A DNA stretch of 37,663 nt from a virus. Positions 7,052 through 37,031 of this stretch are shown in pieces. The stretch covers positions 1-37,663 of the IMG/VR virus record IMGVR_UViG_3300045988_100846; one strand, given 5' to 3'. Within the stretch, counting starts at the first letter, position 1; every line of letters starts with the position of its first letter. The position numbers and the translations under genes are program-made. The notes under the pieces are model-generated. The model was given only the letters and a program-made list of their open reading frames with translations, was not told the DNA's origin and ran no database searches.

Positions 7052-7057
7052 CGGCAG

Positions 7058-8909: not shown

Positions 8910-9533
8910 ATGGGTATCCCTGTTTTAATCATTGGAGAATCCGGCAGCGGCAAGTCTACCAGCCTCCGAAACTTTGAGCCGGGCGAGATTGGTATTTTTA
9001 ATGTTGCAAGCAAGCCGCTCCCGTTTCGCAAAAAGCTGCCGTGTGCCAATGCGGCAGATTATCCGCTGATTGTCCGGACACTGGCACAGCACAACAAGAC
9101 AAAGTACGCGATTGACGACAGTCAGTACTTGCTTGCATTTGAGTTTTTTAACCATGCAAGCGAGAAGGGCTATGAAAAGTTTACCAACATGGCATTAAAT
9201 TTTTACAGCCTTATCCGGTTTATCCAGTTCAAAACGCCTGACAACTGCATTGTGTACTTTTTGCACCACACCGAAACCTCGTATGATGCCGCCGGAAATC
9301 GGCGGCTGAAAGCGAAAACCATTGGAAAAATGCTGGATGAAAAGTTGACGGTTGAGGGCCTATTTTCCATTGTTCTGCTGTGCCAGGCAGATGCGGCAGG
9401 GCGGCACTACTTTCAGACGCAGAGCAACGGCAACAGCACGGCAAAATCTCCTATGGAGCTGTTCCCGGAGGAGATTGACAACGACCTAAAAGCCGTGGAC
9501 AAGGCTATCCGAGAGTACTATCAGCTGGAGTAA
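8910..9533 (+). CDS. Sak4-like / AAA_24 RecA-fold ATPase
   Basis: ATG 8910 has AAAGGAGGTGA upstream. Walker A motif VLIIGESGSGKST near the N-terminus. Confidence 0.8.
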   Translation: MGIPVLIIGESGSGKSTSLRNFEPGEIGIFNVASKPLPFRKKLPCANAADYPLIVRTLAQHNKTKYAIDDSQYLLAFEFFNHASEKGYEKFTNMALNFYSLIRFIQFKTPDNCIVYFLHHTETSYDAAGNRRLKAKTIGKMLDEKLTVEGLFSIVLLCQADAAGRHYFQTQSNGNSTAKSPMELFPEEIDNDLKAVDKAIREYYQLE

Positions 9534-10784: not shown

Positions 10785-10799
10785 GAGGGAGTGAGAACG

Positions 10800-12611
10800 A
10801 TGCGGTATCAATTACAACAATCTGACCTGCTTGCCTTTGCCGAGCGGCAAGGCATCGAAACCAGAGTACACGGCAAAGAATTACAGTTTAAAGAGTGCCC
10901 TTATTGCCATTCCAGCCGGAATGACCAATGGTCATTCAGCATCAGCATGGAATCTGGTGCTTATCGCTGCCCACGGGCGTCCTGCGGTCGTCAGGGGCAT
11001 TTTGTAGAGCTGGCAAGGGACTTTGACTTTCAACTGCAAGCGGACGACACAGGGGCATTTAAGAGCCTGCCACAGGTGCGGTTGATTACGAGCACACCTG
11101 CGGAAAAATACTTATCCCGCCGGGGCATCAAAAAAGAGGTTACGCAGGCTTACGGCATCACAACCACCAAGGACGACCCCAACCAGCTGATTTTCCCGTT
11201 TTACCGTCCGGTCACAGACACGAGCGGCAACCGCTACAATAAACTGGAGTTTGTCAAATATCGCCTGATTGACTACGACAAGGCAAAACACAAGTCCAAA
11301 GAGTGGTGCGAGAGTGGATGCAGACCAATTTTATTCGGGATGGATCACTGCGACCCGACCAAAAACAAAACACTGGTGATTACAGAGGGGCAGATTGACA
11401 GCTTATCCCTTGCAAGTGCAGGGATTCCCAACGCTGTCAGCGTGCCGACTGGAGCAAGAGGGTTTACCTGGGTTGAGCACTGCAGGGACTTTGTGGAGCA
11501 GTTTGACACCATCGTGGTATTTGGTGACCACGAGCGGGGCGGAATCACGCTTGTAAAAGAGATTCGGGAGTTATTTCCAAAATGCAAGGTGCGTTCCGTC
11601 CGTCCGGGAGATTATCTGCTTGAAAAAGACGCAAACGACATCCTGCAGGCTTATGGAGAGCAAGCGTTACACCATGCGGTTGAGCAAGCAGAGGTATTCC
11701 AACCACCGACCATCAAGGACATGGCAAATGTGCAGGGAATCGCTCTCAACGATGTGCCGCACTTTAAAACCATGCTGCCAAAGCTTGACCAGACCATTGG
11801 CGGATTTTACGAGGGACAGCTGATTGCCCTGACTGGCAAATGCGGCACGGGAAAGAGCACACTTGCCAGTATGTTTGCAGTCGCTGCCCTCTGGCAGGAC
11901 TGGAACGTGCTGGTTTATTCTGGCGAGTTGGCAGATTACGAGGTCAAACGCTGGATGGATTTTCAGATTGCCGGCGAAAAGGCAATCAAAGAACGTGTTT
12001 ATACCGATTCTGCCGGGTTTTACCTCGACACGGAGCAGGAGCAACAGCTTGCGGACTGGTATCGCCACCGCCTGTTTATCATGGACAATCTTGCACTGGC
12101 AGAGAAAGACAACATGGACATCGTTTCAGAAATCGAAGCGGCTGTCAGAGTGTATGACGTGCGGTTTGTGCTGGTGGATAACCTCATGACGGCAATTGCC
12201 GAGGGGACGGACATGTACATAGAGCAGAGCAAATTTGTAAAAAAACTAAAACTGCTGGCAAGCAAGCTGCAAATTGTCATTTTACTGGTTGCCCACCCCA
12301 AAAAAACCAAATCTAAGGAGTTAGACGTTGACGAGATATCTGGCTCTGGCAACATCGGCAACCTGTCAGATACCGTTATCATGTTGGATAGAGATACCAC
12401 CACCAAAGACGACGGCGAAAAAATTACACGGACGCTGCTTGCGGTGAAAAAAAACCGTGCAACGGGTATTTTATTGCAAGAGGACGACCGCATCCAGCTG
12501 CGACATAGCCGTAAATCCAAGCGATTGTATCAGGTTGGAGATAAAGGTATTTGTCAATTCCCGTTTAATCTGGATACGGCTAAAAAAGAGGTTACAAAAC
12601 TACCGTTTTAA
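10800..12611 (+). CDS. Bifunctional primase-helicase (zinc finger, Toprim, DnaB-like helicase; T7 gp4-like architecture)
   Basis: ATG 10800 has GAGGGAG upstream. Motifs CPYCHS...CPRASCG, Toprim-like LVITEGQIDSLSL / VVFGDHE, Walker A LTGKCGTGKST and Walker B FVLVDNL. Confidence 0.88.
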   Translation: MRYQLQQSDLLAFAERQGIETRVHGKELQFKECPYCHSSRNDQWSFSISMESGAYRCPRASCGRQGHFVELARDFDFQLQADDTGAFKSLPQVRLITSTPAEKYLSRRGIKKEVTQAYGITTTKDDPNQLIFPFYRPVTDTSGNRYNKLEFVKYRLIDYDKAKHKSKEWCESGCRPILFGMDHCDPTKNKTLVITEGQIDSLSLASAGIPNAVSVPTGARGFTWVEHCRDFVEQFDTIVVFGDHERGGITLVKEIRELFPKCKVRSVRPGDYLLEKDANDILQAYGEQALHHAVEQAEVFQPPTIKDMANVQGIALNDVPHFKTMLPKLDQTIGGFYEGQLIALTGKCGTGKSTLASMFAVAALWQDWNVLVYSGELADYEVKRWMDFQIAGEKAIKERVYTDSAGFYLDTEQEQQLADWYRHRLFIMDNLALAEKDNMDIVSEIEAAVRVYDVRFVLVDNLMTAIAEGTDMYIEQSKFVKKLKLLASKLQIVILLVAHPKKTKSKELDVDEISGSGNIGNLSDTVIMLDRDTTTKDDGEKITRTLLAVKKNRATGILLQEDDRIQLRHSRKSKRLYQVGDKGICQFPFNLDTAKKEVTKLPF

Positions 12612-19125: not shown

Positions 19126-19491
19126 ATGGCGAATGAGAAGAACTTAATTCCGATGAATGAACGTACAGAGGAAGAACAAAGAGAAATTGCAAGGAAAGGC
19201 GGCATTGCGTCAGGAGCGTCCAGACGGGCGTATAGAAGCTTGAAACAAGCCGCGAAGGCATTTTTTAAGGAAAACGATGACGCTGCTATGCGGATGATTC
19301 AAGCCCTTTACGAAGAGGCTGAAAAAGGCAATGTGAAAGCAATTGACAAGTTGCAAGACCTCATTGGTGAAACCGTACAGCGAGAAGAACTTGCCCTCAA
19401 GAAAAAACAGTTTGCCCAGCAGAACGGACAAAAAAGCGTTGCAGAACTGCCACAACTCTTGCAGGCGTTGCAGGAGGATGATGCAGAGTGA
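19126..19491 (+). CDS. Probable terminase small subunit, 121 aa
   Basis: ATG 19126 has GGAGTGGAGGAA upstream. It is basic and helical (REIARKGGIASGASRR) and overlaps the terL start. The call rests mainly on position. Confidence 0.55.
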   Translation: MANEKNLIPMNERTEEEQREIARKGGIASGASRRAYRSLKQAAKAFFKENDDAAMRMIQALYEEAEKGNVKAIDKLQDLIGETVQREELALKKKQFAQQNGQKSVAELPQLLQALQEDDAE

Positions 19492-20741
19492 CGTTTACAA
19501 AGCTATCCAAAAAGCAAAAAACAGTCTTTCGATGGGCATACAAGCCGGATGTGTACGCCTTAATTTGTGACGGCTCTGTGCGGTCTGGCAAGACGGCATC
19601 CATGGCATGTGCGTTTATCCTGTGGGCAATGGCAACATTTGACCGTGCCAGATTTGGCATCTGCGGCAACACGGTACAATCTGCAGAGCGTAACATCATC
19701 ATGGAGCTGTTGCAGATGGCAGACATCACGCACTATTTTAACGTGTCATATATCGGCGGCAGTAAGCACATCTTAACCGTCAAAGGCAACGGCAAGCAAA
19801 ACCAATTTCACGTTTTTGGCGGCAAGGATGAGGCGTCTTATAAGCTTGTGCAAGGCATCACGCTGAGTGGTGTTCTTTTCGACGAGGTTGCCTTAATGCC
19901 GGAATCGTTTGTCAATCAGGCGATCGCTCGTACACTGTCCGTTGGAGATGCAAGACTGTGGTTTAACTGCAATCCAGACAATCCGCAGCACTGGTTTTAT
20001 CAGCAATGGATTTTAAAGGCGGACAGCGGTGAGCGTAACGATGTTTTACATCTGCATTTCACGATGCAGGATAACCCCATCATGACACCACAAAAAATCC
20101 AGCGTGCAGCGTCTGTATACCCTGCTGGAGCGTTTTATGACCGATATGTATTGGGCTTGTGGCGAGTGGCAGAGGGGCTTGTCTATCCGGATTTTGACCC
20201 AGCTGTTAGCGTTGTCCATAATTACAAGCCGTCCGAGAGGGCGGTTTTTTACTTATCCATTGACTATGGTACGCTTAACCCTACATCTATTGGATTGTGG
20301 GCGGTCGAGGATGATTTTGCAGTACGCATAAAAGAGTCATATTATGATGCACGCAAAGAGGACAAGCAAAAGGATGACGAGCAGCATTATCAGGAGATTG
20401 CAAGGCTTGCAGAGGGCTACGACATCCAGCAGATTGTAGTAGACCCGTCTGCCGCAAGTCTGATTGCCTGCATCCAGCACCACGCTGTCTACAGCGTCCG
20501 CAAAGCAAATAACAGCGTAATTGATGGTATCCGGTACACGATGACCTTGTTAAAACAAAAGCGGATTCTGATTGCAGATACTTGCACGGACGCTATCCGG
20601 GAGTTTGGCTTGTATCGGTGGGACGATAAAAAGCAGCAAGATACCGTCATTAAAGAAAACGACCATGCGATGGACGACATCCGGTATTTTTGCTATACCA
20701 TTCTGCGACATTTTGGATGGCGAACAGATGATTGGGGGTGA
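19488..20741 (+). CDS. terL: Terminase large subunit
   Basis: Walker A CDGSVRSGKT, Walker B-like VLFDEV and a C-terminal nuclease region with DHAMDDIRY. Confidence 0.92.
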   Translation: MTFTKLSKKQKTVFRWAYKPDVYALICDGSVRSGKTASMACAFILWAMATFDRARFGICGNTVQSAERNIIMELLQMADITHYFNVSYIGGSKHILTVKGNGKQNQFHVFGGKDEASYKLVQGITLSGVLFDEVALMPESFVNQAIARTLSVGDARLWFNCNPDNPQHWFYQQWILKADSGERNDVLHLHFTMQDNPIMTPQKIQRAASVYPAGAFYDRYVLGLWRVAEGLVYPDFDPAVSVVHNYKPSERAVFYLSIDYGTLNPTSIGLWAVEDDFAVRIKESYYDARKEDKQKDDEQHYQEIARLAEGYDIQQIVVDPSAASLIACIQHHAVYSVRKANNSVIDGIRYTMTLLKQKRILIADTCTDAIREFGLYRWDDKKQQDTVIKENDHAMDDIRYFCYTILRHFGWRTDDWG

Positions 20742-20745
20742 TTTT

Positions 20746-22098
20746 ATGATTAGTTACGCAGATATTGAGGCCGCACTTAATATCAAAACAGCAATATCCC
20801 CACTAATGAGGGGATACATTGAGCAGTGGGAAACGCTGTTTTCCGGCAATTCTGAAAACCGTGAGCAAAAAGACGGCTTACATCTTGCAGCAGCAATCTG
20901 CACCGAGTTTGCACGGTTGATTTTTGCAGAGTCAAAAATAGAGATTACCGGCAACAGCAAGACGGCGGGCTATTTGCAAGCCATGATAGACAACCACCTG
21001 TCAGCATTGCAAACCGGCTTTTCAGCAGGGCTTGCCAGCGGTGGCATGGTAATAAAGCCATATTTTGCAAACGGCGGTGTATCGTTGGAGTGGGTGCCAG
21101 TGCAGCGTGTGTTTCCGATTGCATTTACATCTGATCAGTCTATGCAATCCGCCGTGTTTGCGGATACGTTTCGGAGCGGTGCGGACTGGTACACAAGGCT
21201 AGAGTGTCACGGCTATGACAGCGACAAAAAGCAGTGCATCATTCAAAATTACACGTATCATGCATACGATGCAGACGCGTTGGGCAGCCCCTGCGAGTTA
21301 TCAGAAACACCGTGGGCTGGATTAGAGCCGCTAGTCAACGTGCAGTCAGAAACGCCGCTGTTCGGTTTTTTCCGTGTGCCAAAGCCCAACAGCAAAGACC
21401 CGACCTCTGCTTTGGGCGTGTCCGTGTTTGCGGATGCACTGCCGCAGATTGTTCAGGCGGATCAATTATGGTCGGAAATTTTGTGGGAATACGAATCAAA
21501 AGAAACCGCAGTCTTTGCGACACAGGACATTTTCAACAGATTTGACCGGCTTTCCGCACATGATAAGCGGTTATACAAAAAGATGCTGTCCATCGGGGAT
21601 GATGATTCTGACAAAATCATGCCGTATTCGCCGGAGATTCGGGATGCATCATTTTTTAACGGCTTAAATAAGATTTTGCAGCGAATTGAATTTTCTTGTC
21701 AACTTGCCTATGGCACGCTGTCAGAGCCTGCAGAGGTCGCAAAAACAGCAACCGAGATTGAGTCGTCCAAGCAACGCAGCTATGTATTTGTGTCTGCCCT
21801 GCAAAAACAGACGGAAAACGCTCTGCGGCGAGCAATTACAGCAGCTGCAACACTGGCGTTTTATCATGGTGTTATCCCGTCAACAGAGTTTGAGATTGCT
21901 TTTGATTGGGGTGACAGTGTGCTGGAGGACGTAAATGCAAAGACGCAGCGAGAGTTGCAGTTTGTACAAGCGGGCATCTTAAAACCGGAAATTTTTCTGA
22001 GCAGCTATTACGGCTGCTCGGAAGAAGAAGCAAAAAAGATGATTCCGGAGGCTGGCAGCCCTGAGGATTACAGCCTGTTTGGCGTAGGTGACCGCTGA
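20746..22098 (+). CDS. Portal protein
   Basis: ATG 20746 has GGGGGTGA upstream. It is 450 aa, lies directly after terL, and its sequence is SPP1 gp6-like in style. Confidence 0.85.
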   Translation: MISYADIEAALNIKTAISPLMRGYIEQWETLFSGNSENREQKDGLHLAAAICTEFARLIFAESKIEITGNSKTAGYLQAMIDNHLSALQTGFSAGLASGGMVIKPYFANGGVSLEWVPVQRVFPIAFTSDQSMQSAVFADTFRSGADWYTRLECHGYDSDKKQCIIQNYTYHAYDADALGSPCELSETPWAGLEPLVNVQSETPLFGFFRVPKPNSKDPTSALGVSVFADALPQIVQADQLWSEILWEYESKETAVFATQDIFNRFDRLSAHDKRLYKKMLSIGDDDSDKIMPYSPEIRDASFFNGLNKILQRIEFSCQLAYGTLSEPAEVAKTATEIESSKQRSYVFVSALQKQTENALRRAITAAATLAFYHGVIPSTEFEIAFDWGDSVLEDVNAKTQRELQFVQAGILKPEIFLSSYYGCSEEEAKKMIPEAGSPEDYSLFGVGDR

Positions 22099-24331: not shown

Positions 24332-25204
24332 ATGGCAAATGCAATCGAATTGGCAAAAAAATGCGTCACCATGCTGGATGAGGTCTATAAGCAGTCCTCT
24401 AAGACCATGGTGTTGGACAGCGGTAGTGATATTGTCACAATGACAAAGGACACCGGAGAATTTAAGATTCCGAAGTATGACATGGACGGGCTGGGCGATT
24501 ACAGCCGCACAGAGGGCTATGCTGCTGGAGATGTCAAGTTGGAATGGGAAACCAAAAAGCCGAACTACGACCGTGGCAGAAAGTTTGCAGTCGATGCGAT
24601 GGACGATGAAGAATCTATTGCACTGGCGTTTGGTCTGCTGTCTGCCGAATTTATGCGAACAAAGGTTGTACCGGAAATGGACGCAATGCGGTTTGCACAG
24701 TACGCAGGGACAACCGGCATCCAGAAAAAAGCGGAAACCTTTGCAACCGTGACGGACATCACCGAAGCTATCATGACCGCAAACATCGCCCTTGATGAAG
24801 CGGAAGTCACCGAAACGGGTCGGTATTTGTTTGTAACACCAACCTTGTTACAGATGATTAACGCCATGGACACATACAAGTCCAAGGCAATGATGGAACG
24901 ATTTGCAAGCATCGTGACAGTACCGCAGAGCCGCTTTTATACAGCAATTGATACACTGGACGGCAAATCCGCCAGCGAAAAGGCAGGTGGATTCAAGAAA
25001 GCGACCGGTGCAAGCGATATCAACTTTATGATTGTTGACAAGGCAGCAGTCTTGCAGGTACAAAAGCACGTTGTATCTAAGATTATTGCTCCGGAAGTCA
25101 ACCAGTCTATGGATGCATGGGCGTTTTATTACCGCACATATGGCTTGACTGATGTGCTGGATAACCATGCAAAGGGCATTTATTGCTCCTATAAGACCGC
25201 CTGA
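24332..25204 (+). CDS. Major capsid protein
   Basis: 290 aa, following the scaffold gene. The call rests on sequence style and position. Confidence 0.8.
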   Translation: MANAIELAKKCVTMLDEVYKQSSKTMVLDSGSDIVTMTKDTGEFKIPKYDMDGLGDYSRTEGYAAGDVKLEWETKKPNYDRGRKFAVDAMDDEESIALAFGLLSAEFMRTKVVPEMDAMRFAQYAGTTGIQKKAETFATVTDITEAIMTANIALDEAEVTETGRYLFVTPTLLQMINAMDTYKSKAMMERFASIVTVPQSRFYTAIDTLDGKSASEKAGGFKKATGASDINFMIVDKAAVLQVQKHVVSKIIAPEVNQSMDAWAFYYRTYGLTDVLDNHAKGIYCSYKTA

Positions 25205-28222: not shown

Positions 28223-28237
28223 AAGGAGGTGGGGCAA

Positions 28238-31200
28238 ATGGCAAATGACGGCACGATTGCATTTGATTCTCGGATAAACACCGATAATTTGAACAGAGAT
28301 TTGTCGGAAATGGAGGAGGCAATCTCAGACGCTGCCACTGCAGCAGAAAAAGAAACCGAACAATCATTTAGCAGCATAAAGTCTCAGGTTGCAAAGTTAG
28401 CAGCAACATACAAAGAAGCCGGAATGACTGCTTCAGATGCGATGAAAAAAGCATGGGCGGAAGTAAAAGAAAGTTCCACATCTTTCCAAACAGCAGAAAG
28501 AACTGTTTCCGACTTTGCAGACAAGGCGGAAGCGGAACTGCAAAATGTGAGAGAAATTGCAACACAATCTTTCGATGGGATTCCACAGAACGTGGAAAAA
28601 AGCCTTGAAGCAGCCAATACTTCTGTAGATCAATTTTCTGGAAAACTGCAAAACGCCCTTGCTGCCGCCGGCTTGGCATACGGGGCAAAAGAAATCACAG
28701 AAGTGGGCACCTCCTATGAAAAAGCCATGAATCAGGTGGCAATCTCTACAGGTACGGCAGGGCAGGAACTGGAGAACCTGCAGGGCATTGCGTCCAACGT
28801 GTATGCAGACAATTTTGGAGAATCTATGGAAGATGCAGCCGCCAGCGTGGCAGAGGTGTACAAGCGGACTGGATTGGTCGGCGAGGAGCTGCAAAAGGCA
28901 ACCGAAGACGCATACACCTTGCAAAATGCGTTTGGATATGAGGTCAACGACAGCCTGCAGGCTGTCACGCAGCTGATGAGCACGTTTGGTATTACTGCAG
29001 ATGAGGCTTACACGTTGATTGCACAGGGTGCACAAAAGGGCCTTGACCAAAATGGTGACATGCTGGACACGTTAAACGAGTATTCCGTGCAGTTTGCCAA
29101 TCTGGGTTACTCTGCAGAGGATATGTTTAATATGCTTGCAAATGGCGTACAAAACGGTACATGGTCAGTGGATAAGCTGGGCGATGCGGTCAAAGAAATG
29201 AACATCCGATTAAATGATGGCACAGCGAACGAAGCCTTACAAACATTAGGGTTTAACCTTGACGACATAAAATCAAAGCTCGCTGCCGGCGGCTCTGATG
29301 CGCAGGAAGCAATTCAGAAAATCATGGCGGCATTGTCACAGGTGGAGAACGAGCAAGACCGCTATGTGTTGGGTCAGACGCTGATGGGAACGCAGTGGGA
29401 AGACATCGGCGAAAGTGCCGTGCAAGCCCTGATGAACACGCAGGGCGAAATCTCCACCACATCTGATGCAATGGACAAGCTATCCGACATGCAATTTGAC
29501 GACCTAGGCAGCCAGTTTGAAAAGCTGAAGCGTCAGGTTGAAACAGAAGTTGTGCTCCCGATTGCACAAAAATACATGCCAAAAATTGAAAAAGCAATTG
29601 ACTACGTATCGGAGCACCTTGATGAGATTGTAGCACATGCAAAGCCGATTGCAACAGCGATTGCGGCAGCGTTTGCAGTTAAAAAAATCACGGATTTTGG
29701 TAGCTCTGCGATTACGACCGCAAAAACAATCAAAACAGCGTTTAAGATGTTAAACGCATCTAATCCGCTTGGCTGGATTGCAATTGGAGTGAGTGCCCTT
29801 GTGGGGCTGGAAACGGCACTGCGGAGCATGTCCAGCAAACATCAGGCATACTTACAAGGTATCACCGACAAAGCCGCCGAAATCCCTACAGAGCTGCAAA
29901 AATCTATTGATGCAACCAACGAGTTTGCCGACTCTTGGGACAACATCAAAAAAAACATGGGCAGCAATTTTACAACGGAGTCATTTGACTATGAGAGTGT
30001 TGTAAAACTCAAAGACTCTTTAGGCGAGTTAATCAATGCGGACGGTACAATCAAAGCTGGAGCAGAGCAAAAAGTATCTGACATCATCGGTCAGCTTAAC
30101 CAGTACGCAGATACAGGGTTGATGGTGTCTGACGGCGTTATCCAAAAAAATGGCGAGGTTGTCACATCTTATGACCAAATCTCAGATAGCATCGATAAGG
30201 TCATAGAAAAGCAGCATGCACAAAACTTGTTAAGTGTTGCGGAGCAAGGCTATCAAGAGGCATTAGGCAGCCAGCAACAGCTTTTGGACAACGAGACGGA
30301 GTATGCAAACGTGCTGGAAGAAACACGAGCAAAAGCCTCTGCACTGCAAAAAGAAATTGACTCACTTTATAAAACTCATGCACTCGGGACGGATATAAAT
30401 GGGAATATTTACGTGGACGCAGAAGCAGGAAACCGCATCGCAGAATTAAAAGCAGAATTAGACGGATATAACCAAAAAATTGACGAAACCACCGAAGCAC
30501 GGGCAAAAAACAACGCAGAGTTGGAAGCGTCTCTTGCATATATCTCCCGATATAAAGGGATGCAAGAAGACTTGTTAAACGAAGATTTTGACAAGGTTGG
30601 CGAGGGATTTGCAAAGTTATCCTCTGATTTTATCACCGCATCCACAGGGACACGGGAGGAATTAAAACAGCAGGTATCTGACTTTAAAAGCCAGTATGAA
30701 ACGCTCCTCGAAACACAGAAAAAAAGTCCGGAATTGGTATCAGATGAGCAACTACAAAACGCACTCTATTTGTGGGAGCAATCCATGGTTGAGTTGGAGG
30801 CAGCAACCGGAGAGCATGCGGTCAACATCGGTGCAAATTTTGTTGACACATTGGCAATGTCTGGTATGAGTCAGGATGCACAAATCGTAGCGTTAAATAC
30901 ATATATCCAAAACCGTCTAAACGACGGAGAGAGTTTGAAAGAGATTGCGGACTCATTAGGTGTAAATTTTACATCGAGCATGGCAGAAGGGGCAGAGAAA
31001 GGCGGAGCAGCCCTCGAAGAAGCTGAGAAATACATCGTAAACTCTGCCGTTGAAAACGTGAAAAACGACGCTTATAACGGTATGTATGACCTTGGCGATT
31101 ATATGGGCAGAGGCACAATTGCTGGATTAGAAGCGACGCAAGCAGCCCTGGAAGCAGTGGCACAGCACCACGTTTGGTCTGCTATCGGTGCAGCACAAGC

Positions 31201-31636
31201 AGCTGCGGACATCCACTCGCCGTCCCGTGTTATGCGTGATAAAGTCGGTTATATGTTAGGCCTAGGCACAGCAGCAGGCTTGCAAAAGAGTACGCCAGCG
31301 GTGCAAGACGCATCTAAAAACAGCGTTACAGCTGCCGTTAATGCAGCAACTGACGTTTTCCCGAATGTTGGCGTTACCGCTGAGATTGCACAGGCTCTTG
31401 TGCCACAAACGCTGGGCATTATGTCAAATCAAGGCAGCTCTGCAGTGTCTGCATATAATCCGGCATATCAACAGATACAAACGGCAGATATGCAGCAGCA
31501 GCCAACTCCAACGCAAAGCAATCAGGGTATCCGTGACATTATTATCCCCGTTAATATTGGCGATGAAACGCTTGAAACGGTCGTTGTAAACGCCATTACA
31601 AGAGCAAATGCAAGCAGTGGGGGGTGGAGCGTGTGA
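28238..31636 (+). CDS. Tape measure protein
   Basis: ATG 28238 has AAAGGAGGTGG upstream. 1132 aa, helical, with a central hydrophobic segment and the ADIHSPSRVMRDKVGYMLG motif. Confidence 0.92.
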   Translation: MANDGTIAFDSRINTDNLNRDLSEMEEAISDAATAAEKETEQSFSSIKSQVAKLAATYKEAGMTASDAMKKAWAEVKESSTSFQTAERTVSDFADKAEAELQNVREIATQSFDGIPQNVEKSLEAANTSVDQFSGKLQNALAAAGLAYGAKEITEVGTSYEKAMNQVAISTGTAGQELENLQGIASNVYADNFGESMEDAAASVAEVYKRTGLVGEELQKATEDAYTLQNAFGYEVNDSLQAVTQLMSTFGITADEAYTLIAQGAQKGLDQNGDMLDTLNEYSVQFANLGYSAEDMFNMLANGVQNGTWSVDKLGDAVKEMNIRLNDGTANEALQTLGFNLDDIKSKLAAGGSDAQEAIQKIMAALSQVENEQDRYVLGQTLMGTQWEDIGESAVQALMNTQGEISTTSDAMDKLSDMQFDDLGSQFEKLKRQVETEVVLPIAQKYMPKIEKAIDYVSEHLDEIVAHAKPIATAIAAAFAVKKITDFGSSAITTAKTIKTAFKMLNASNPLGWIAIGVSALVGLETALRSMSSKHQAYLQGITDKAAEIPTELQKSIDATNEFADSWDNIKKNMGSNFTTESFDYESVVKLKDSLGELINADGTIKAGAEQKVSDIIGQLNQYADTGLMVSDGVIQKNGEVVTSYDQISDSIDKVIEKQHAQNLLSVAEQGYQEALGSQQQLLDNETEYANVLEETRAKASALQKEIDSLYKTHALGTDINGNIYVDAEAGNRIAELKAELDGYNQKIDETTEARAKNNAELEASLAYISRYKGMQEDLLNEDFDKVGEGFAKLSSDFITASTGTREELKQQVSDFKSQYETLLETQKKSPELVSDEQLQNALYLWEQSMVELEAATGEHAVNIGANFVDTLAMSGMSQDAQIVALNTYIQNRLNDGESLKEIADSLGVNFTSSMAEGAEKGGAALEEAEKYIVNSAVENVKNDAYNGMYDLGDYMGRGTIAGLEATQAALEAVAQHHVWSAIGAAQAAADIHSPSRVMRDKVGYMLGLGTAAGLQKSTPAVQDASKNSVTAAVNAATDVFPNVGVTAEIAQALVPQTLGIMSNQGSSAVSAYNPAYQQIQTADMQQQPTPTQSNQGIRDIIIPVNIGDETLETVVVNAITRANASSGGWSV

Positions 31637-32508
31637 TACAAATTAATCACAAAAGCTATAACTATACTGAGCAAATAAGCCCGGTTTACATCCAGCTGAT
31701 TGCTGGCGGGTCTTATGGTATTGCAACAAATTTTAACTGGCAAATGGCAACGACCTTACAAGGCACAACAATAGAGCGAGTATCAAACGGGATTGTTTTT
31801 AAGAGCGGAGATGTTGACGTCCTGGCACTGGATGAGGATGCACGCATCCGGCTTACAGACATTGGGCTTCCGGCAGACCACAAAAACGGTAATGCAATCA
31901 TAACAAAAAATACAGAAGTTTTTACTAAAGTGGATGGTACTGTCAGCAACTATCAAAGCAGTGACGGACGCACCGTCGATTTGAGAACGCCAGATTTTTG
32001 CTATGATTTAAGTACTGGTAGGATGTACCGTGCAAACAGGGACAGTGACACAGAGCTCCGTGTCTGGACAACAGAGTACCATAACTATTTGATTCGTCAA
32101 TTTACAAAATTTGACGTATCTTATTCGGAAATCACAAACACCTATGAAAACGAAACCGGACACACTATCCAATATCCGGTCCGAGTCGGCAAGCGAAAAA
32201 TCGACTTGGAATTAGAGTGCAACCTCGACGCGCTGAACATCTTAACGGAATTTTTCCAGCAATCGGAAATTTTGATGCTCTACCAATCCCCAACGGATGC
32301 AGCAGAGCAGTTTGGCACATTTCGCAAAACATCTGACATCCAAGTGCAAACGGTCTCAAAAAATCCGCATTATTACAATAATCCATTTTTATATCAAAAG
32401 CTGGAGGATGGTACAAACAACGGATATTTTTATGAGTTGCAAGAGTTGTATGCAGGCAAAAGTCAAACCGGTATCTATTACATTTCTGTCAGCCTGGAGG
32501 AGGTGTAA
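31633..32508 (+). CDS. Distal tail protein (Dit)
   Basis: GTG 31633 overlaps the tape measure stop and is preceded by GGGGGGTGGAG. Called by position and size. Confidence 0.75.
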   Translation: MIQINHKSYNYTEQISPVYIQLIAGGSYGIATNFNWQMATTLQGTTIERVSNGIVFKSGDVDVLALDEDARIRLTDIGLPADHKNGNAIITKNTEVFTKVDGTVSNYQSSDGRTVDLRTPDFCYDLSTGRMYRANRDSDTELRVWTTEYHNYLIRQFTKFDVSYSEITNTYENETGHTIQYPVRVGKRKIDLELECNLDALNILTEFFQQSEILMLYQSPTDAAEQFGTFRKTSDIQVQTVSKNPHYYNNPFLYQKLEDGTNNGYFYELQELYAGKSQTGIYYISVSLEEV

Positions 32509-32511
32509 ACC

Positions 32512-34038
32512 ATGGTGATTTACGAGCATGTAAAGGGCATTCTCTCTGTTCCCTGCTATCTGGATAATGGTGATTATGCCGAATATACAACGGACATTGC
32601 TTTTACCGATTCTGATATTATCCGGAATAGCTGTTCCATCAAATCCTCTGCCTGTGACAGCAGCACCTTTTCCCTTGGCAGTGTCCGCCCGGCGGAACTG
32701 TCCATTCAGCTGCACTTAGAGCAAGACGGCATCAATGCATATAACTTGTATGGTGCAAAAATCATTCTGTACAGCTGCTATCAAAAAGAGCCGTCAGATT
32801 GGATTTTTCGTGGAATGTTCTGGGTGACATCGGTATCCCGTAAAAAAACGCTGTACACGCTTCGGGCATCGGATGCCTTGGTATGGCTAAATAACAATTC
32901 CATTTCGTCCGGTTCTGGAAAAGTTGATGACGATGAAAGCGAAGTATCCAAAAAACTGAGGGATAAACTGGAAGGTTATGAGGGCGGCGGTGACGGTGGT
33001 GTTTATCCTCTGCATGAAATTGTAACGGATATTGTCACATGGACGAATGACATTCTGCAAAATATGATTGCAGAAAAGCCACTTGCTTATGAACATATCA
33101 ATTCTATCCCGAATGATAATCCAAAACTGGGAAATTCCTACAGCGGTTATACACTGATGCGAAAATCAGAAGAGGGAGAATCCAGAAATACCCGATACAG
33201 TGCTATCGATTATATCTCTGCCCTTGCAAAACCGGCTTGTTCCTTTGTATGTATGCGAAATGACCAATATCAGAACAATGATTCACAAGTGCCTTTTTCT
33301 CTTGTTCCATTTGGCTTTTTTAAAGACAAAATACGTGTTCCGTTTTCTTCTATTGCAAGAGATAGCTGTGATGTGGCATCGTATAACATCTATATTCAAA
33401 AGGTCTATTTTAAAACCTATGATGATACTGGATGGACAAATGCAAGGGAATACAAGCCAATGCTGGGAAATGCAGAAATCGACCTGTCCAGCAATTGCTT
33501 TTTTGATGGAAGAAGAATGGAAACGGTTTTGAATTATCAAGAAGACTTTCCGGACACAAACGACAAAAACGAATATCCGATTGTGGAAGCAGCAGCAAAT
33601 TATCTGTTTCACAATGTGCTGCTGAAACCATTTCAGCTAAAATGCTATCTGAAATTTGATGACATGGAACACTTTCCTAAGTTGGGGCAGCGAATTGAAA
33701 TCGAATATCAGCCTGGGAAATGGGCAGAAAGTACCATTACAAACATGACCTGGAAGTTCCGTGGTGGATGGGAGTTTTCCTGCACCGGGAAGGACACCAG
33801 AGTGCTGGCACAGGCTGCAAAGCGGTCGCTGGCGTTCAATGCAGAAAACGCATCGAAACGTCATGCGGACATTGTGGCAGCAAGTGCTAAAAAAATTGCT
33901 TTAGCGAAAGCAGACGAAGCTTGGAATTATGCTGACAAGAATGTATCAGATATACAAAATTTAGAAGATAACAAAGTTGAAAACGAAGAATTTAAAAACG
34001 CAATCAATGCCCTCTGGGATGCTATCAATAACTTGTAA
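32512..34038 (+). CDS. Tail-associated protein (Tal / baseplate hub-like)
   Basis: 508 aa, following Dit, with a C-terminal coiled coil. Confidence 0.75.
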   Translation: MVIYEHVKGILSVPCYLDNGDYAEYTTDIAFTDSDIIRNSCSIKSSACDSSTFSLGSVRPAELSIQLHLEQDGINAYNLYGAKIILYSCYQKEPSDWIFRGMFWVTSVSRKKTLYTLRASDALVWLNNNSISSGSGKVDDDESEVSKKLRDKLEGYEGGGDGGVYPLHEIVTDIVTWTNDILQNMIAEKPLAYEHINSIPNDNPKLGNSYSGYTLMRKSEEGESRNTRYSAIDYISALAKPACSFVCMRNDQYQNNDSQVPFSLVPFGFFKDKIRVPFSSIARDSCDVASYNIYIQKVYFKTYDDTGWTNAREYKPMLGNAEIDLSSNCFFDGRRMETVLNYQEDFPDTNDKNEYPIVEAAANYLFHNVLLKPFQLKCYLKFDDMEHFPKLGQRIEIEYQPGKWAESTITNMTWKFRGGWEFSCTGKDTRVLAQAAKRSLAFNAENASKRHADIVAASAKKIALAKADEAWNYADKNVSDIQNLEDNKVENEEFKNAINALWDAINNL

Positions 34039-34051: not shown

Positions 34052-36430
34052 ATGCTAACAGCAAATCAAAAATACATCGACACCGCAAACATCAAGCACC
34101 TGCTGGGTGCCGGCGAAAAGAATGCAGATAAAATCCAAATCGCCGTTGACCGATACTATCACCAAACGGATTTATCTGATTGCCTGTTTACGCTGCGAGC
34201 TGTCAACAGCGGCGGTGGGCTTGTCATGCAGGACCTCGAAAAAGAGGTCACAGAAAGCCAAATTATCTTAACATGGACGATTACAGAGGACTTTACAGCG
34301 GTGTCCGGTCAGCTACTGCCGGAAATTGTCGGCCAAAAAGATGATACTGTCGTTATAAAATACGAAATGACCCCGATGATTGTCCGCAACTCTATTTTAG
34401 AGCAGTATAATGGCGGTATTGATGCGATTGACAAAGCCCTGCGTGAGATGCAGTCCATCCTCGCACAGGCGGAACAGTTGATTGCAAAAGCTCCGATTAT
34501 CCAGAACGGCACATGGTGGTTGTACGACGCTGCAACGGGTGCTTATCAGGATTCTGGACAGCCTGCAAAGGGCGACAAGGGAGAAACGGGGGAGAAAGGC
34601 GACCCTGGAAAGCAAGGAAAGACCGGAGCGAAAGGCGAAAAAGGTGAAAAAGGTGACGCTGGAACACCCGGCAAGAACGGCGTAAACGGAAAAAACGGTG
34701 CGGACGGTTATTCTCCAACGGCAACCGTCACTGAAACAGATACCGGGGCAACAATCACAATCACTGACAAAAATGGCACAACGACAGCAACCATCAAAAA
34801 TGGAACAAGCGGAGAGACCGCCTCTTGGGGCGATTACACACCGGGATGTGAAGAGGGTGAATCAGCGAAATACTGCACCGCAAAGCTGGTAACTGTATAT
34901 GGCAAGCAAACGTGGCAGATATTGCCGTCTATCAGCACCGTATCTCACAATGCACTGGGTATTGTAACGGATGGGCTGTTTGTGCTGGATTTGTCGCCGG
35001 ATGTGGATACACTCAAAGCGTCTGCACATACGCATGACAATAAAGAAGCGTTAGACAGCATTACCAGCGATAAGATTACAACATGGGATGGTTATTCCGA
35101 GGAAATCCAGACTGTGAAAAATGGGTTAGTCGGAAAGAAAGACCAAAATTCATCATATATTACTGGCGAAATTTTTAATGAATATAAGAAAAATAAAGCC
35201 ACAGGTTATGCTTCTCATTCAGAAGGTTCCACGACTACAGCATCCGGCAATTGCTCCCATTCAGAAGGTTGCGATACTACAGCATCTGGCAGAACTTCTC
35301 ATGCAGAAGGTTATTTTACTATAGCATCCGGCGATTACTCTCATTCAGAAGGTTTCAATACTACAGCGTCTGGCATAACTTCTCATGCAGAAGGTAACGT
35401 TACTACAGCATCCGGCAATCACTCTCATTCAGAAGGTAATTATACTATAGCATCCAGTTCTTATCAGCACGTACAAGGGCAGTTCAACGTTGAAGATTCT
35501 GATTCCAAATATTCTTTTATAATTGGTAATGGCAAAGATAACAACAATCGTTCCAATGCCTTTGCAATTGACTGGAATGGAAAAATCTATATTGGCAATG
35601 ATACAGATGGCGTGGATGTTTCTGCATTGGCTATTACGATAGCTGAATTACAATCACAACTAAACCGGAAAACCATCCAATTCCGGCACGGGAAAGGAAC
35701 GCTTACCGCAACAGCAAATGGTACAAATGTTGTGTGGCAGTACGGCGGACAACAGGTGCAAGGGGGTAGCTGCACGTTTGATGTAAAATCAGACAATGGG
35801 CTGATTACGCTGGAATGTGATACCATCGAAAGCCTTACAATCAAAAATGATACTACAAACAAGATGGATTTATCAGACTTAGGCGGTAAGATTGCAAGCG
35901 TGCTCAGTCTAGAAAGCTGCCCAAACATCACAGGAGATTTGTCTGATTTAGGTGGTAAGATTGCAAGCTCGCTAAACTTAAGCAGCTGCCCAAACATCAC
36001 AGGAGATTTGTCTGATTTAGGTGGTAAGATTACAAATTGGTTAAGTTTAGACAACTGCCCAAACATCACAGGAGATTTGTCTGATTTAGGCGGTAAGATT
36101 ACAAATTGGTTAAGTTTAAAAGGCTGCCGAAACATTACAGGAGATTTATCTGATTTAGGCAGTAAGATTGCAAGCATGCTTAACTTAGGCTACTGCTCAA
36201 ATATTACAGGTGTTTACTCTGGGACAAAATACCCAAAAACATTTGCTGTATCAAAAACAGCTATCACGTCAGCCAATATGGACGCAAATTTGATAAATTT
36301 TGCAGCAAGTGGCGTCAAATCAGGCACGTTTACAGCAACCGGAATGAAAAGAACGGCTGCATCCGATAATGCTGTTGCAACATTGGTTACAAACGGTTGG
36401 ACAGTATCGGGTCTTACAAAGGAGGGATAA
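34052..36430 (+). CDS. Chimeric tail fibre / receptor-binding protein: BppU-like N-terminus, collagen-like Gly-X-Y run, adhesin-head-like 14-aa repeats, C-terminal leucine-rich repeats
   Basis: ATG 34052 has AAGGGAG upstream. About 16 X-Y-G triplets (34556..34708). SHSEGxxTTASGxx repeated about 6.5 times (35207..35478). A 23-aa repeat DLSDLGGKIxxxLxLxxCPNITG occurs five times. Confidence 0.85.
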   Translation: MLTANQKYIDTANIKHLLGAGEKNADKIQIAVDRYYHQTDLSDCLFTLRAVNSGGGLVMQDLEKEVTESQIILTWTITEDFTAVSGQLLPEIVGQKDDTVVIKYEMTPMIVRNSILEQYNGGIDAIDKALREMQSILAQAEQLIAKAPIIQNGTWWLYDAATGAYQDSGQPAKGDKGETGEKGDPGKQGKTGAKGEKGEKGDAGTPGKNGVNGKNGADGYSPTATVTETDTGATITITDKNGTTTATIKNGTSGETASWGDYTPGCEEGESAKYCTAKLVTVYGKQTWQILPSISTVSHNALGIVTDGLFVLDLSPDVDTLKASAHTHDNKEALDSITSDKITTWDGYSEEIQTVKNGLVGKKDQNSSYITGEIFNEYKKNKATGYASHSEGSTTTASGNCSHSEGCDTTASGRTSHAEGYFTIASGDYSHSEGFNTTASGITSHAEGNVTTASGNHSHSEGNYTIASSSYQHVQGQFNVEDSDSKYSFIIGNGKDNNNRSNAFAIDWNGKIYIGNDTDGVDVSALAITIAELQSQLNRKTIQFRHGKGTLTATANGTNVVWQYGGQQVQGGSCTFDVKSDNGLITLECDTIESLTIKNDTTNKMDLSDLGGKIASVLSLESCPNITGDLSDLGGKIASSLNLSSCPNITGDLSDLGGKITNWLSLDNCPNITGDLSDLGGKITNWLSLKGCRNITGDLSDLGSKIASMLNLGYCSNITGVYSGTKYPKTFAVSKTAITSANMDANLINFAASGVKSGTFTATGMKRTAASDNAVATLVTNGWTVSGLTKEG
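35867..36211 (+). repeat. Five in-frame tandem 69-bp repeats encoding the leucine-rich repeat units
   Basis: Units start at 35867, 35936, 36005, 36074 and 36143. The framework DNA is near-identical, with a variable patch in the middle of each unit. Confidence 0.9.
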
Positions 36431-36432: not shown

Positions 36433-36618
36433 ATGTACATAAAATATGCGGATTATCAGCCTAACATGAAACTTGGCGATGATGATAGCGTTTTGATGTC
36501 GTTGCAGGAGTTTTTAGATGGCGGCAAAGATTTGGAGGACGTGCCGGTTACGATTACGCCGGACGGAGAACCACCTGCGGAAAGCACAGAAGACATATGC
36601 GAGGGGGAATTTGAATGA
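36433..36618 (+). CDS. Hypothetical acidic protein, 61 aa
   Basis: ATG 36433 has AAGGAGGG upstream. Confidence 0.65.
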   Translation: MYIKYADYQPNMKLGDDDSVLMSLQEFLDGGKDLEDVPVTITPDGEPPAESTEDICEGEFE

Positions 36619-37031
36619 AAGAATGGATTTGTGCAGCAGCCGGAACGGTCGGCGGTCTGATTGCCGGGCTGTTTGGCGGCTGGGATGCAGCAATTAGAGC
36701 CTTACTGATTTTTATGGCGATTGATTACCTGATGGGGTTAGCTTGTGCAGGGATTTTCAAAAAGTCCCCGAAAACAGAATCAGGCGGCTTACAATCTAAA
36801 GTCGGCTGGAAAGGTTTGTGCCGTAAGGTTGCAACGCTTGCACTTGTTGTGGTTGCCGTGCAGGTGGACGCTGTCCTGCATACGTCATATGTAAGAGATG
36901 GCGTATGCATTGCATTTATGGTAAATGAATTGATTTCAATGGTCGAAAACGTGGGTTTGATGGGTGTGCAGTTCCCTGAACCGCTCCGAAAAGCAATTGA
37001 TTTGCTGCAAAAAAAAGAGGAAAAGAAATGA
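36615..37031 (+). CDS. Holin (phage_holin_4_1 / TcdE-like family)
   Basis: Multiple transmembrane segments. The pattern WDAAIRALLIFMAIDYLMG...NELISMVENVGLMG is typical of this holin family. Confidence 0.85.
   Translation: MKEWICAAAGTVGGLIAGLFGGWDAAIRALLIFMAIDYLMGLACAGIFKKSPKTESGGLQSKVGWKGLCRKVATLALVVVAVQVDAVLHTSYVRDGVCIAFMVNELISMVENVGLMGVQFPEPLRKAIDLLQKKEEKK

Follow-up and report, generated by a model that had tools for sequence, protein, structure and literature searches.

How phages of strictly anaerobic gut Firmicutes recognise their hosts is, to our knowledge, almost unexplored, and nearly all structures of receptor-binding proteins that we know of stem from phages of E. coli, Klebsiella and Listeria or from lactococcal and staphylococcal phages. 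In siphoviruses of Firmicutes, the slot directly before the holin, at the end of the tail module, is the usual place of the receptor-binding protein. In phage TP901-1, BppU holds a separate receptor-binding protein, BppL. Leucine-rich repeats (LRRs), on which the innate immune receptors of eukaryotes are classically built, are tandem units of 20-30 residues with the conserved segment LxxLxLxx(N/C)xL; each unit contributes a short beta-strand to one face of a solenoid and a helix or turn to the opposite face. In canonical LRRs, the ligand is contacted by the positions of the segment xxxLxLxxCx, and the cysteine-containing (F-box/Skp2-type) class is built of units of approximately 25-27 residues with an alpha-helical convex side.

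The closest described systems resemble different parts of the fibre analysed here. FibU and FibL of phage 80alpha and BppU of TP901-1 begin with an Ig-like domain by which a peripheral fibre is anchored on the siphovirus baseplate. This domain is followed by a coiled coil in FibL and BppU and by a collagen-like helix in FibU, which, with its BppU-like N-terminus and its collagen helix, is a precedent for the architecture reported below (PMC7048315). LRR or LRR-like domains on tail or fibre proteins are predicted in BspA-type LRR_5 proteins of gut phages and in the DUF7941-LRR proteins of the Chimalliviridae phage Goslar, for which a role of the LRR in host recognition has been proposed without experiment (bioRxiv 10.64898/2026.04.21.720040). 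This prediction was the nearest result of our literature search, which retrieved no characterised LRR-tipped phage fibre, and neither of two tail-fibre atlases (PMC12143355 and PMC12923769) mentions LRRs.

Here, we analysed a stretch of viral DNA of 37,663 nucleotides (IMG/VR record IMGVR_UViG_3300045988_100846), in the following termed the window. It probably comes from a gut phage of approximately 37 kb, a siphovirus of the temperate type that infects a Ruminococcus-like bacterium, and the protein studied here would be its peripheral host-recognising fibre. A scan of GTDB genomes yielded a single partial match, Ruminococcus sp. CAG:254. A previous sequence-only reading had divided the fibre into a BppU-like N-terminus, collagen-like triplets, repeats reminiscent of trimeric adhesin heads, and distal LRRs of the cysteine-containing kind.

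Results

The features of the fibre gene and its neighbours are compiled in Table 1. We consider the ATG at 34052 to be the right start of the fibre because its homologues open with the residues MLTANQKY and because a Shine-Dalgarno-like GGGAG motif is located approximately 8 nt upstream; a longer reading frame from the TTG at 33977 has no support. The local gene order is tape-measure protein, Dit, Tal, fibre, 61-aa ORF and holin. The order of the tail genes is syntenic in the related loci L001-L003, L005 and L006, in which Pfam recognises Dit and Tal, and divergent relatives place the fibre or its C-terminal module likewise. In all examined loci, the divergent ones too, the LRR module lies at the end of the tail module, immediately ahead of the holin. 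The 61-aa ORF has no match in Pfam or PHROG; its identity is 89% to the ORF that follows a stand-alone LRR gene in L001, but only 30% to the ORF that precedes this gene.

Table 1. Coordinates of the tail fibre gene, its predicted parts and the adjacent genes in the window
Feature	Position	Strand	Basis or remark
Tape-measure protein	28229-31636	+	PF10145
Dit-position gene	31624-32508	+	Synteny; Dit Pfam matches in relatives
Tal-position gene	32512-34038	+	508-aa protein; PHROG 6616 'tail protein'; synteny
Tail fibre gene	34052-36430	+	792 codons + stop; last tail gene, between Tal-position gene and lysis genes
Putative N-terminal baseplate-anchor domain, aa 1-171	34052-34564	+	AlphaFold pLDDT 81.9; Foldseek; predicted BppU-like fold
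Collagen-like triple-helix segment, aa 172-219	34565-34708	+	16 X-Y-G triplets; Pfam PF01391
Post-collagen shaft, aa 220-387	34709-35212	+	Includes CFSR-like segment and SAHTHDNKEALDSIT motif
SAHTHDNKEALDSIT motif in shaft	35021-35065	+	
14-aa repeat region, aa 388-485	35213-35506	+	~6.5 copies of SH(S/A)EGxxT(T/I)ASGxx; resembles YadA-type head
Neck (KYSFIIGNG...RSNAFAIDWNGKIYIG) and short helix (VDVSALAITIAELQSQLNRKT), aa 486-541	35507-35674	+	Junction to C-terminal module
PKD-like beta-sandwich, aa 542-605	35675-35866	+	AlphaFold strands, model residues 10-66; BFVD
Five 23-aa LRR units, aa 606-720	35867-36211	+	DLSDLGGKIxxxLxLxxCxNITG; TRF, AlphaFold, Foldseek, profiles, hhalign
Alpha/beta C-terminal cap, aa 721-792	36212-36427	+	Conserved; AlphaFold model residues 187-260
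61-aa acidic ORF	36433-36618	+	Accompanies LRR module, fused or free
Holin	36615-37031	+	PF05105 E 1.8e-36; PHROG 199; marks tail-module end

The AlphaFold model of the N-terminal domain comprises an Ig-like beta-sandwich (aa 1-111), a long helix (aa 122-145) and a beta-hairpin (aa 149-171). Its best PDB matches in Foldseek are siphovirus baseplate proteins (NF5, 9m8o, 5.7e-5; 80alpha, 6v8i, 3.3e-4), and BppU-length chains (291-299 residues) of TP901-1 (4v96) follow at 2e-3 to 9e-3; the identity of the matched chains and the description of their domains were taken from PMC7048315. At the sequence level, the Pfam profile BppU_N (PF10651) did not match the fibre even at E <= 10 and is carried by none of the 36 N-terminal homologues, the comparison with PDB sequences gave noise only, and the domain matches PHROG 25888, a PHROG of unknown function. 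The proposed BppU likeness thus holds for the predicted fold, but not for the sequence profile. FibU (gp68), FibL (gp62) and BppU (ORF48) have no detectable N-terminal sequence similarity to the window fibre, and their distal parts are unrelated; neither 80alpha nor TP901-1 has a YadA-type head or an LRR module.

The collagen-like segment, in which about 16 uninterrupted X-Y-G triplets had been noticed, contains exactly 16 of them (AKG...ADG) and scores 32.9 bits against the 27.2 cut-off of Pfam Collagen, the sole Pfam or NCBIfam model above its cut-off in searches with the whole fibre and four segments. It is also matched by PDB collagens and by 80alpha FibU gp68, where the alignment covers FibU residues 176-210. 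The shaft that follows begins with a weak CFSR-like beta segment at aa 220-251 (PF19079, E 0.012, below the cut-off).

The likeness of the 14-aa repeats to trimeric adhesin heads was borne out. The previously counted 6.5 copies correspond to six full units and a degenerate seventh (at the DNA level 5.8 copies of a 42-bp period between 35213 and 35455; TRF), and the motif RSNAFAIDWNGKIYIG comes after them, as had been stated. A profile of the region (A2) retrieved BpaC (E 9e-16) and CbpF (6e-5) from the PDB sequences, followed by UspA1, EibD and YadA, although the single sequence remained below the threshold of Pfam YadA_head PF05658 (20.6 bits, cut-off 25). The heads of these trimeric autotransporters (BpaC 7o23, CbpF 9u93, YadA 1p9h, UspA1 and EibD) share the 14-residue repeat of the SxAxGxxxxAxGxx kind and its IGNG-type end. 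In contrast to them, the window protein lacks a signal peptide, a stalk and a membrane anchor, and here the repeat makes up one module of a phage fibre: Pfam and NCBIfam found neither an anchor beta-barrel nor any other autotransporter domain, and the gene lies within a phage tail module. One relative in UniProt already bears the name 'YadA-like protein [Myoviridae sp. ct4tH12]'.

The C-terminal module begins after a junction (...QLNRKTIQFRHGKG) that is also present in stand-alone LRR-module proteins. AlphaFold predicts the module, as a monomer, with high confidence (pLDDT 94.3, pTM 0.89) as a PKD-like sandwich followed by a solenoid of five turns and a cap. The sandwich is matched by PKD-domain proteins of BFVD at E 2e-9 and 4e-8 and, with the broad family profile (A5), weakly by the PKD domain of ColH (E 0.07). 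The solenoid shows a regular strand/strand/4-residue helix per 23 residues, and its units, with the invariant block NITGDLSDLGGKI, form a DNA repeat with a 69-bp period (5.0 copies, 82-85% matches, score approximately 400, 35867-36210; TRF). All five units of the earlier count were found; such regularity far exceeds what chance would give, and the units are kept across hundreds of homologues. The cap has the signature ...MDxNLI...RTAASDxAVATLxxNGWTVSGL, which is conserved in the profiles A1, A3 and A5, and is kept even in distant family members such as P0337.

The view that the C-terminal units are a real LRR domain, its fold being a predicted one, holds. In the PDB, every top structural match of the repeat region is an LRR protein (ribonuclease inhibitor, NLRP3, NLRC4, NOD2 and BRL3), with TM-scores of just 0.3-0.45 and none at E <= 1e-3 for the module, and the BFVD matches are phage proteins named LRR, BspA-LRR or PKD (E 1e-9 to 1e-4). 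While the fibre itself did not match the LRR models of Pfam and NCBIfam even at E <= 10, the matched segments of three relatives (P0318, P0337 and P0417; profile E 1e-16 to 1e-36) pass Pfam LRR_4 with 33.5, 29.7 and 84.7 bits, respectively, against a cut-off of 27. The family profile also links to Pfam LRR_14 proteins, and hhalign against P0417 gave a probability of 95.5% (E 1.4e-8). Among PDB sequences, the A3 profile had zero matches, searches with the module as single sequence or profile yielded at most a single plant NLR LRR (E 2.3), and the broader A5 profile found weak LRR matches (ANP32A LRR, 0.0017; YopM, 0.12). Matches of zf_Rg, YbaB, DUF5465 and SpoVAD to the C-terminus were short, fell on the repeat and were discarded as spurious. 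The predicted fold, the intermediate sequences and hhalign all point to an LRR.

Assignment to the cysteine-containing LRR type is warranted for the LxLxxCxxIT segment, but not for the unit length (23 aa versus 25-27). The cysteine that replaces asparagine at position 9 of the conserved segment and the subsequent xxIT are present, and among 351 distinct units L13, L15 and C18 are invariant or nearly so (conservation of 99% for C18, 94% for I21 and 98% for T22). The units, however, are strictly 23 residues long with a helix of only 4 residues, Pfam LRR_6 matched neither the query nor the scanned relatives, and just one weak F-box-LRR structural match was obtained (E 0.079). The nearest LRR kinds are the cysteine-containing one and the 24-residue kind 'LTGDLxxLxxLxxLxxLxLxxC' (Pfam LRR_4, LRR_14, LRR_Zer-1, RPS2-type). 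The module has in common with canonical LRRs the LxLxxCxxIT segment, a strand/loop/short-helix solenoid and variation at the strand x positions; it differs from known LRRs by its own PKD-like N-terminal domain, a family-specific C-terminal cap and the 4-residue convex helix, its unit being one residue shorter than that of the nearest relatives and 2-4 residues shorter than that of the F-box-type cysteine-containing LRRs.

The variation of the units falls almost only at the canonical ligand-contact positions. Over the 351 distinct units, positions 10-12, 14, 16, 17 and 19 have an entropy of 1.2-2.9 bits, and all others one of at most 0.71 bits. Within the window gene, pairwise comparison of the units revealed 53 nonsynonymous and no synonymous differences in the seven variable codons, in contrast to 4 nonsynonymous and 47 synonymous differences in the 16 framework codons. 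Despite these counts, we do not claim positive selection, since in a set of 71 distinct units taken from 21 loci pN/pS at the variable positions was 0.2-0.98 and never exceeded 1, with saturated synonymous sites. Exposed residues under relaxed constraint would look no different. On inspection, the codon differences do not follow an adenine-specific pattern, and none of the larger annotated ORFs is a reverse transcriptase. The number of units ranges from approximately 1 to 7 among relatives, and differs even between close ones: P0003, a two-unit form with 99% identity, has three units fewer, and P0001, with 96% identity, one fewer.

A profile search assigned 921 clusters at 50% identity to the module family, and fibre architectures are mosaic among the 120 closest homologues. 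In L001-L003, the module occurs in a free form as a separate gene of 319 aa with 95% identity to that of the window, while the fibre of these loci shares aa 1-341 with the window fibre and then continues with a Beta_helix-type C-terminus; the recombination breakpoint with the L001 fibre at approximately aa 341 is inside the shaft. An assembly chimera was ruled out, as many independent contigs carry the module fused to the fibre. In L006, an LRR_5 gene adjoins an LRR-tipped fibre of the window family. A comparison with 50,697 GenBank phage records gave no match for 17.6 kb of the window (megablast) or for the LRR module (tblastn), and the module has no relative in INPHARED, PHROG or PDB. The earlier remark that an LRR fibre tip is uncommon is hence accurate for cultured and characterised phages, but not for metagenomes, in which it is widespread. 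The BspA-type and Goslar LRR proteins belong to other LRR classes and carry other attachment domains, and neither the combination of collagen, YadA-type head and LRR nor comparable unit-number and position-specific variability has been reported for them. New in this study are the variability by unit position, the range of copy numbers, the fused or free occurrence of the module and a large family seen only in metagenomes.

Discussion

From the sequence anatomy, the predicted folds and homologies, the pattern of variability, the differences in copy number and the fused or free occurrence of the module at the end of the tail module, we infer the following arrangement with respect to trimer geometry, receptor binding and receptor identity. 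Most likely, three chains assemble into one fibre. The BppU-like Ig domain and the adjacent helix would attach the fibre to the baseplate in the region of Dit and Tal, because their fold resembles that of TP901-1 BppU and 80alpha FibU/FibL. The 48-residue collagen triple helix and the beta-rich shaft would form a thin, flexible stalk, and farther out the YadA-type left-handed beta-roll head and the neck may hold the trimer together. Past the short helix, every chain would have its own module of PKD-like sandwich, five LRR turns and cap, so that the fibre tip would display three LRR solenoids. We propose that the LRR module is the main determinant of specificity, with seven solvent-exposed varying positions per turn on an otherwise invariant scaffold, and that unequal recombination among the 69-bp units could gain, lose or exchange whole turns and thereby retune binding. 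The arguments that the LRR domain probably recognises the host are positional and evolutionary. Taken as a whole, we favour, with some reserve, an LRR-tipped host-recognising peripheral fibre as the best explanation.

An alternative to which we assign a minor but real share is that the YadA-type head (aa 388-520) is the true receptor binder and the LRR module an accessory, for instance a binder of a secondary or reversible receptor or of extracellular polysaccharide, or else a distal cap. The head region is significantly related to the heads of adhesive trimeric autotransporters, the YadA-type fold is itself adhesive in bacteria, and the number of head repeats varies among homologues, too. Furthermore, the only matches of the whole fibre to GenBank phage records in tblastn lie in the YadA-like segment, namely in Flavobacterium, Verrucomicrobia and crAss-like phages, where they are annotated as tail spike or tail fibre. 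Relatives such as L001 possess two candidate binders, the beta-helix fibre and the free LRR protein, which shows that an LRR can come as an additional, second element. However, the head repeats lack a comparable split into invariant scaffold and hypervariable positions, and nothing in the fibre lies farther out than the LRR module. In addition, 30 of the 120 close homologues consist of N-terminus, shaft and LRR module without any YadA segment, so the head is dispensable while the LRR tip is retained.

It is less probable that the LRR module does not address the bacterial host at all and instead binds something in the gut environment such as mucin or dietary glycans, or serves as a folding or trimerisation cap during assembly. 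Binding within the gut environment, to mucin or glycans, has been proposed for Ig-like decoration domains, and LRRs are all-purpose scaffolds that bind proteins and glycans. The module is predicted to fold autonomously with its own caps (AlphaFold), can be a separate protein, and is always accompanied by the small acidic ORF, which might be an assembly partner. Yet its constant position before the holin argues for a receptor-binding role, no other obvious receptor-binding candidate was seen among the annotated ORFs of the window, and so strong a diversification of exposed positions would be unexpected in an assembly cap. A function as intramolecular chaperone was ruled out, since neither the peptidase S74 signature nor another chaperone signature was found by Pfam and NCBIfam.

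We give very little credence to the idea that the 23-aa units form one shared trimeric beta-helix or spike that mainly acts as a length-adjustable spacer, with a misleading monomer model: all parts upstream are probably trimeric, intertwined fibre tips are frequent in phages, the PDB matches of the module are statistically weak and copy-number variation could merely tune fibre length, but the highly confident monomer model buries both solenoid ends under N- and C-terminal caps, the repeats are homologous to monomeric LRRs known to Pfam, and a spacer would not focus its variation on canonical ligand-contact positions.

Going beyond the LRR-tipped fibre as such, a cassette system of host range is a tentative reading that we consider possible rather than probable. 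The 69-bp units, each with seven hypervariable ligand-contact residues, would be interchangeable on an invariant scaffold, unequal or ectopic recombination within and between phages would add, remove and reshuffle them, and the free gene would act as donor or acceptor. If true, this would be a recombinational counterpart to mutagenesis by diversity-generating retroelements (DGRs) and a formal analogue of the LRR variable receptors of jawless vertebrates and of plant NLR diversification, and LRR tips would constitute a major uncharacterised class of receptor-binding domains in phages of gut Firmicutes.

LRRs would join the repertoire of receptor-binding folds of phages. In the compact, confidently predicted module of approximately 250 aa, the scaffold is invariant, each turn offers seven variable positions, the number of turns can differ, and the whole behaves as a plug-in that occurs fused or free. 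These traits could make it a handle for predicting or engineering the host range of Ruminococcus-type phages, for obtaining strain-specific binders and for asking which surface molecule is recognised. Since so large a family has no member in PHROGs, GenBank phage records or PDB, one solved structure or one study of binding would allow many metagenomic proteins to be annotated.

Proposed organisation of the fibre

We consider it reasonably likely that the product of the last tail gene works as a baseplate-anchored trimeric fibre whose leucine-rich repeat (LRR) tip is a putative host binder. Attachment to the baseplate would fall to the BppU-like domain, and the stalk would consist of collagen helix, shaft and YadA-type head. 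Each chain would end in a module of PKD-like sandwich (aa 542-605), LRR units and cap (aa 721-792), with the variable strand face binding a host surface component. Through its 69-bp units, the array could be resized and reshuffled by recombination.

The position as last tail gene follows from the gene order from tape measure to holin, and no other obvious receptor-binding candidate was seen among the annotated genes of the window. The correct start is the ATG at 34052, since homologues all start with MLTANQKY and a GGGAG motif lies upstream. The window appears to be a complete siphovirus genome (~37.6 kb) in circularly permuted form, with which the splitting of the lysis genes by the window ends (holin near the 3' end, endolysin near the 5' end) is consistent; of the ORFs scanned, none was recognised as an integrase. 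Source names (MAG 'Ruminococcus sp.') and a GTDB match to Ruminococcus sp. CAG:254 point to human-gut Ruminococcus.

Coordinates of annotated features in the window
Feature	Position	Strand	Remark
Endolysin	1957-3243		M15/GH25-type
Replication initiator	3511-4575		syntenic L001 gene is Rep3-type
Primase/helicase	10791-12608		
Large terminase	19488-20738		
Portal	20572-22095		
Major head protein	24332-25201		
Tape measure	28229-31636		
Dit-position gene	31624-32508		
Tal-position gene	32512-34038		
Fibre	34052-36430	+	792 aa by translation
61-aa ORF	36433-36618	+	strongly acidic
Holin	36615-37031		next gene, a PHROG 21498 protein, cut by window end

Proposed anchor and stalk

The BppU-like N-terminus claimed in the sequence-only reading stands at the level of fold and architecture, but not at that of the sequence family. 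Pfam BppU_N did not match the fibre even at E <= 10, a PDB sequence search with the N-terminal part returned noise only, and BppU annotation was absent from the 36 N-terminal homologues. However, the AlphaFold model of this part (pLDDT 81.9) opens with a beta-sandwich (aa 1-111), to which a helix of 24 residues (aa 122-145) and a hairpin are added, and the PDB entries it matches best are proteins of siphovirus baseplates, with phage NF5 (9m8o, 5.7e-5) and 80alpha (6v8i, 3.3e-4) preceding TP901-1 4v96 chains of 291-299 residues (2e-3 and weaker); 4V96 chains of this size are BppU (ORF48) (PMC7048315). BppU-like Ig-like N-terminal domains have been reported for 80alpha FibL and FibU, and in FibU a collagen-like helix follows at residues 178-208 (PMC7048315), which is the layout of the window fibre, whose collagen segment aligns to FibU 176-210. 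The uninterrupted X-Y-G triplets, noted previously as about 16, were confirmed as 16 at aa 172-219 (Pfam Collagen 32.9 bits, cut-off 27.2).

The 14-aa repeats SH(S/A)EGxxT(T/I)ASGxx, counted before as about 6.5 copies, form six full units and a degenerate one at aa 388-485, followed by RSNAFAIDWNGKIYIG; TRF reported a 42-bp period with 5.8 copies. At 35213-35455 an 84-bp, two-unit superperiod is stronger than the 42-bp period (86% vs 76% matches), which suggests that the array grew by duplicating unit pairs. Pfam YadA_head remained sub-threshold on the single sequence (E 5.9e-4, 20.6 bits vs 25). The supposed likeness to adhesin heads was borne out by a profile of nine sequences (aa 372-540), which in the PDB matched the trimeric autotransporter head of BpaC (9e-16), cell-surface protein 9gh4 (5.5e-5) and CbpF (6.3e-5), then UspA1, EibD, a Hep_Hag protein and YadA. 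An assignment of the fibre as an autotransporter was rejected, the head repeat being the sole common part. Relatives in cultured phages (Flavobacterium, Verrucomicrobia and crAss-like phages), annotated as tail spike or tail fibre, cover the 14-aa repeat region only.

Mosaic architecture and free module proteins

Ten different combinations of the four segments were seen in the 120 closest homologues, and only seven proteins have all four in common with the window fibre. It is unlikely, in our estimate, that the YadA-type head is the primary binder. In favour of this reading, its repeats are of adhesin type and differ in number between homologues; against it, 30 of the 120 have N-terminus, shaft and LRR but lack the YadA segment.

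Three loci from related phages or prophages (L001-L003) carry the LRR part as a free protein, in the order TMP, Dit, Tal, 648-aa fibre, 61-aa ORF, 319-aa LRR protein, 65-aa ORF and holin; between this LRR protein and the window fibre C-terminus, identity is 95%. The L001 fibre (5877-7820) shares 82% identity with the window fibre over aa 1-341, followed by a Beta_helix-type (PF13229-like) end, and in the region 35021-35074 (aa 324-341) the similarity stops just past the conserved His-rich SAHTHDNK motif, which appears to mark a module junction and recombination breakpoint. Separate module proteins come in lengths of 273, 296, 319, 342 and 365 aa, each 23 aa longer than the one before, and bear a 65-aa N-terminal adaptor (MSKKPLTRDEQFLAKAAGDD...) that presumably docks the free protein on the virion. 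In the metagenome protein P0125 and its relatives (aa 1-65; L001 8001-8195), this adaptor is internally duplicated (PLTRDEQFLAKAAG ... PLTRVQEFLERI).

The counterpart of the window's 61-aa ORF is the L001 ORF 3' of the free LRR gene (8963-9157, 89% identity) and not the one 5' of it, so module and small acidic ORF move together. Pfam and PHROG searches with this ORF gave no match; it may partner the module during assembly. That the module itself serves assembly or binds something other than the host we hold to be improbable: the joint movement speaks for such a role, the variable strand face of the units against it. More divergent module carriers (L005, L006) likewise lie directly before the holin. 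In L006, a related prophage, a Pfam LRR_5 (BspA-type) gene (5625-7001) directly precedes a 969-aa LRR-tipped fibre, placing two LRR classes side by side in one tail module.

The repeats of the LRR module

Five 23-aa units DLSDLGGKIxxxLxLxxCxNITG were confirmed at aa 606-720 (TRF: 69-bp period, 5.0 copies, 82-85% matches). A 196-aa antisense ORF opposite this array (35587-36177, minus strand), its product likewise repetitive, is almost certainly a repeat by-product and not a gene. AlphaFold, given aa 531-792 with 80 homologues, returned a model (pLDDT 94.3, pTM 0.89) that starts with a beta-sandwich (model residues 10-66) and ends in an alpha/beta cap; in each of the five turns, xLx of LxLxxC forms a short strand, ITGD a second one and LSDL a helix of four residues. 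Against the PDB this model had no match at E <= 1e-3, and for the repeat part every leading match is an LRR protein: ribonuclease inhibitor (TMq 0.39), NLRP3 (0.45), NLRC4, NOD2, BRL3 and RPP1. In BFVD, the top match was a UniProt family member, 'YadA-like protein [Myoviridae sp. ct4tH12]' (64% identity); after it came phage proteins whose names are PKD-domain, leucine-rich repeat or BspA-family LRR (E 2e-9 to 5e-4).

None of the curated LRR models was matched by the query sequence itself, and a module profile matched no PDB sequence, so that no solved structure of a relative was found. A profile search of 1.84 billion representatives yielded 921 clusters at E <= 1e-3, including P0318, a NACHT-LRR protein (Pfam LRR_4 33.5 bits on the matched segment), P0337 (the family's C-terminal cap and LRR_4, 29.7 bits) and P0417 (LRR_4 84.7 bits); five of 63 distant small family members passed LRR_4 at E <= 0.001. 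With hhalign, module profile and P0417 aligned at 95.5% probability (E 1.4e-8); the 23-aa units pair with units of 24 aa, one residue being deleted in each turn. A broader family profile matched weakly the ANP32A LRR (0.0017), YopM (0.12) and, for the leading sandwich, the ColH PKD domain (0.07). On the basis of predicted fold, profile-linked relatives and hhalign, the repeats are genuine but divergent LRRs; beside these links, a trimeric beta-helix shared by the chains, for which the statistically weak PDB matches would leave room, is very improbable. The suggested cysteine-containing type holds for the conserved segment LxLxxCxxIT, but the F-box type does not fit the 23-residue length and minimal helix. 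In P0318 (1991 aa), from the metagenome set, 24-aa 'C..(L/M)TGD(I/L)..L' repeats at aa about 1460-1600 bear a close resemblance to the phage units (profile E 9.6e-36), which hints at a repeat type common to phage fibres and cellular NLR-like proteins.

Across 351 distinct units from 223 distinct C-termini, entropy reaches 1.2-2.9 bits at unit positions 10-12, 14, 16, 17 and 19 and is <= 0.71 bits elsewhere. In LRR numbering these are x2, x3, x5, x7, x8 and x10 of LxxLxLxxCx, the exposed, ligand-contacting positions of the LRR strand face. At the seven variable codons of this gene, all 53 pairwise differences are nonsynonymous; at the 16 framework codons, four are nonsynonymous and 47 synonymous. 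Among 71 distinct nucleotide units from 21 loci, pN/pS is 0-0.2 at most framework positions and 0.75-0.98 at positions 12, 16, 17 and 19, never exceeding 1, with synonymous sites saturated. Purifying selection clearly acts on the scaffold, and the variation is clearly focused; positive selection on the variable positions is not proven. Homologues have between about 1 and 7 units at a strict 23-residue period, and gain and loss must be fast, given that the metagenome protein P0001 (96% identical) has exactly one unit fewer and P0003 (99%) three. A module 100% identical to the window's is present on a 37,274-bp IMG/VR contig.

Relation to known phage fibres

A BppU-like anchor with collagen is already known from 80alpha FibU, YadA-like repeats from a few annotated phage fibres, and BspA-type LRRs as predictions in phage virion proteins; the DUF7941-LRR proteins of phage Goslar are likewise predicted LRR virion proteins (bioRxiv 10.64898/2026.04.21.720040). 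In the searchable literature, we found no account of this LRR module family at the tip of a fibre, with position-specific variability, unit-number variation and both fused and free occurrence. No PHROG family covers the module (no PHROG match beyond aa 517), and no relative was found among GenBank phages. Sequence and model comparisons describe a probable siphovirus tail fibre and putative receptor-binding protein with an unusual tip, every component of the fibre being already known. The LRR-tipped fibre has good computational support and raises a question that can be tackled; for a modular phage fibre it is conceptually unsurprising.
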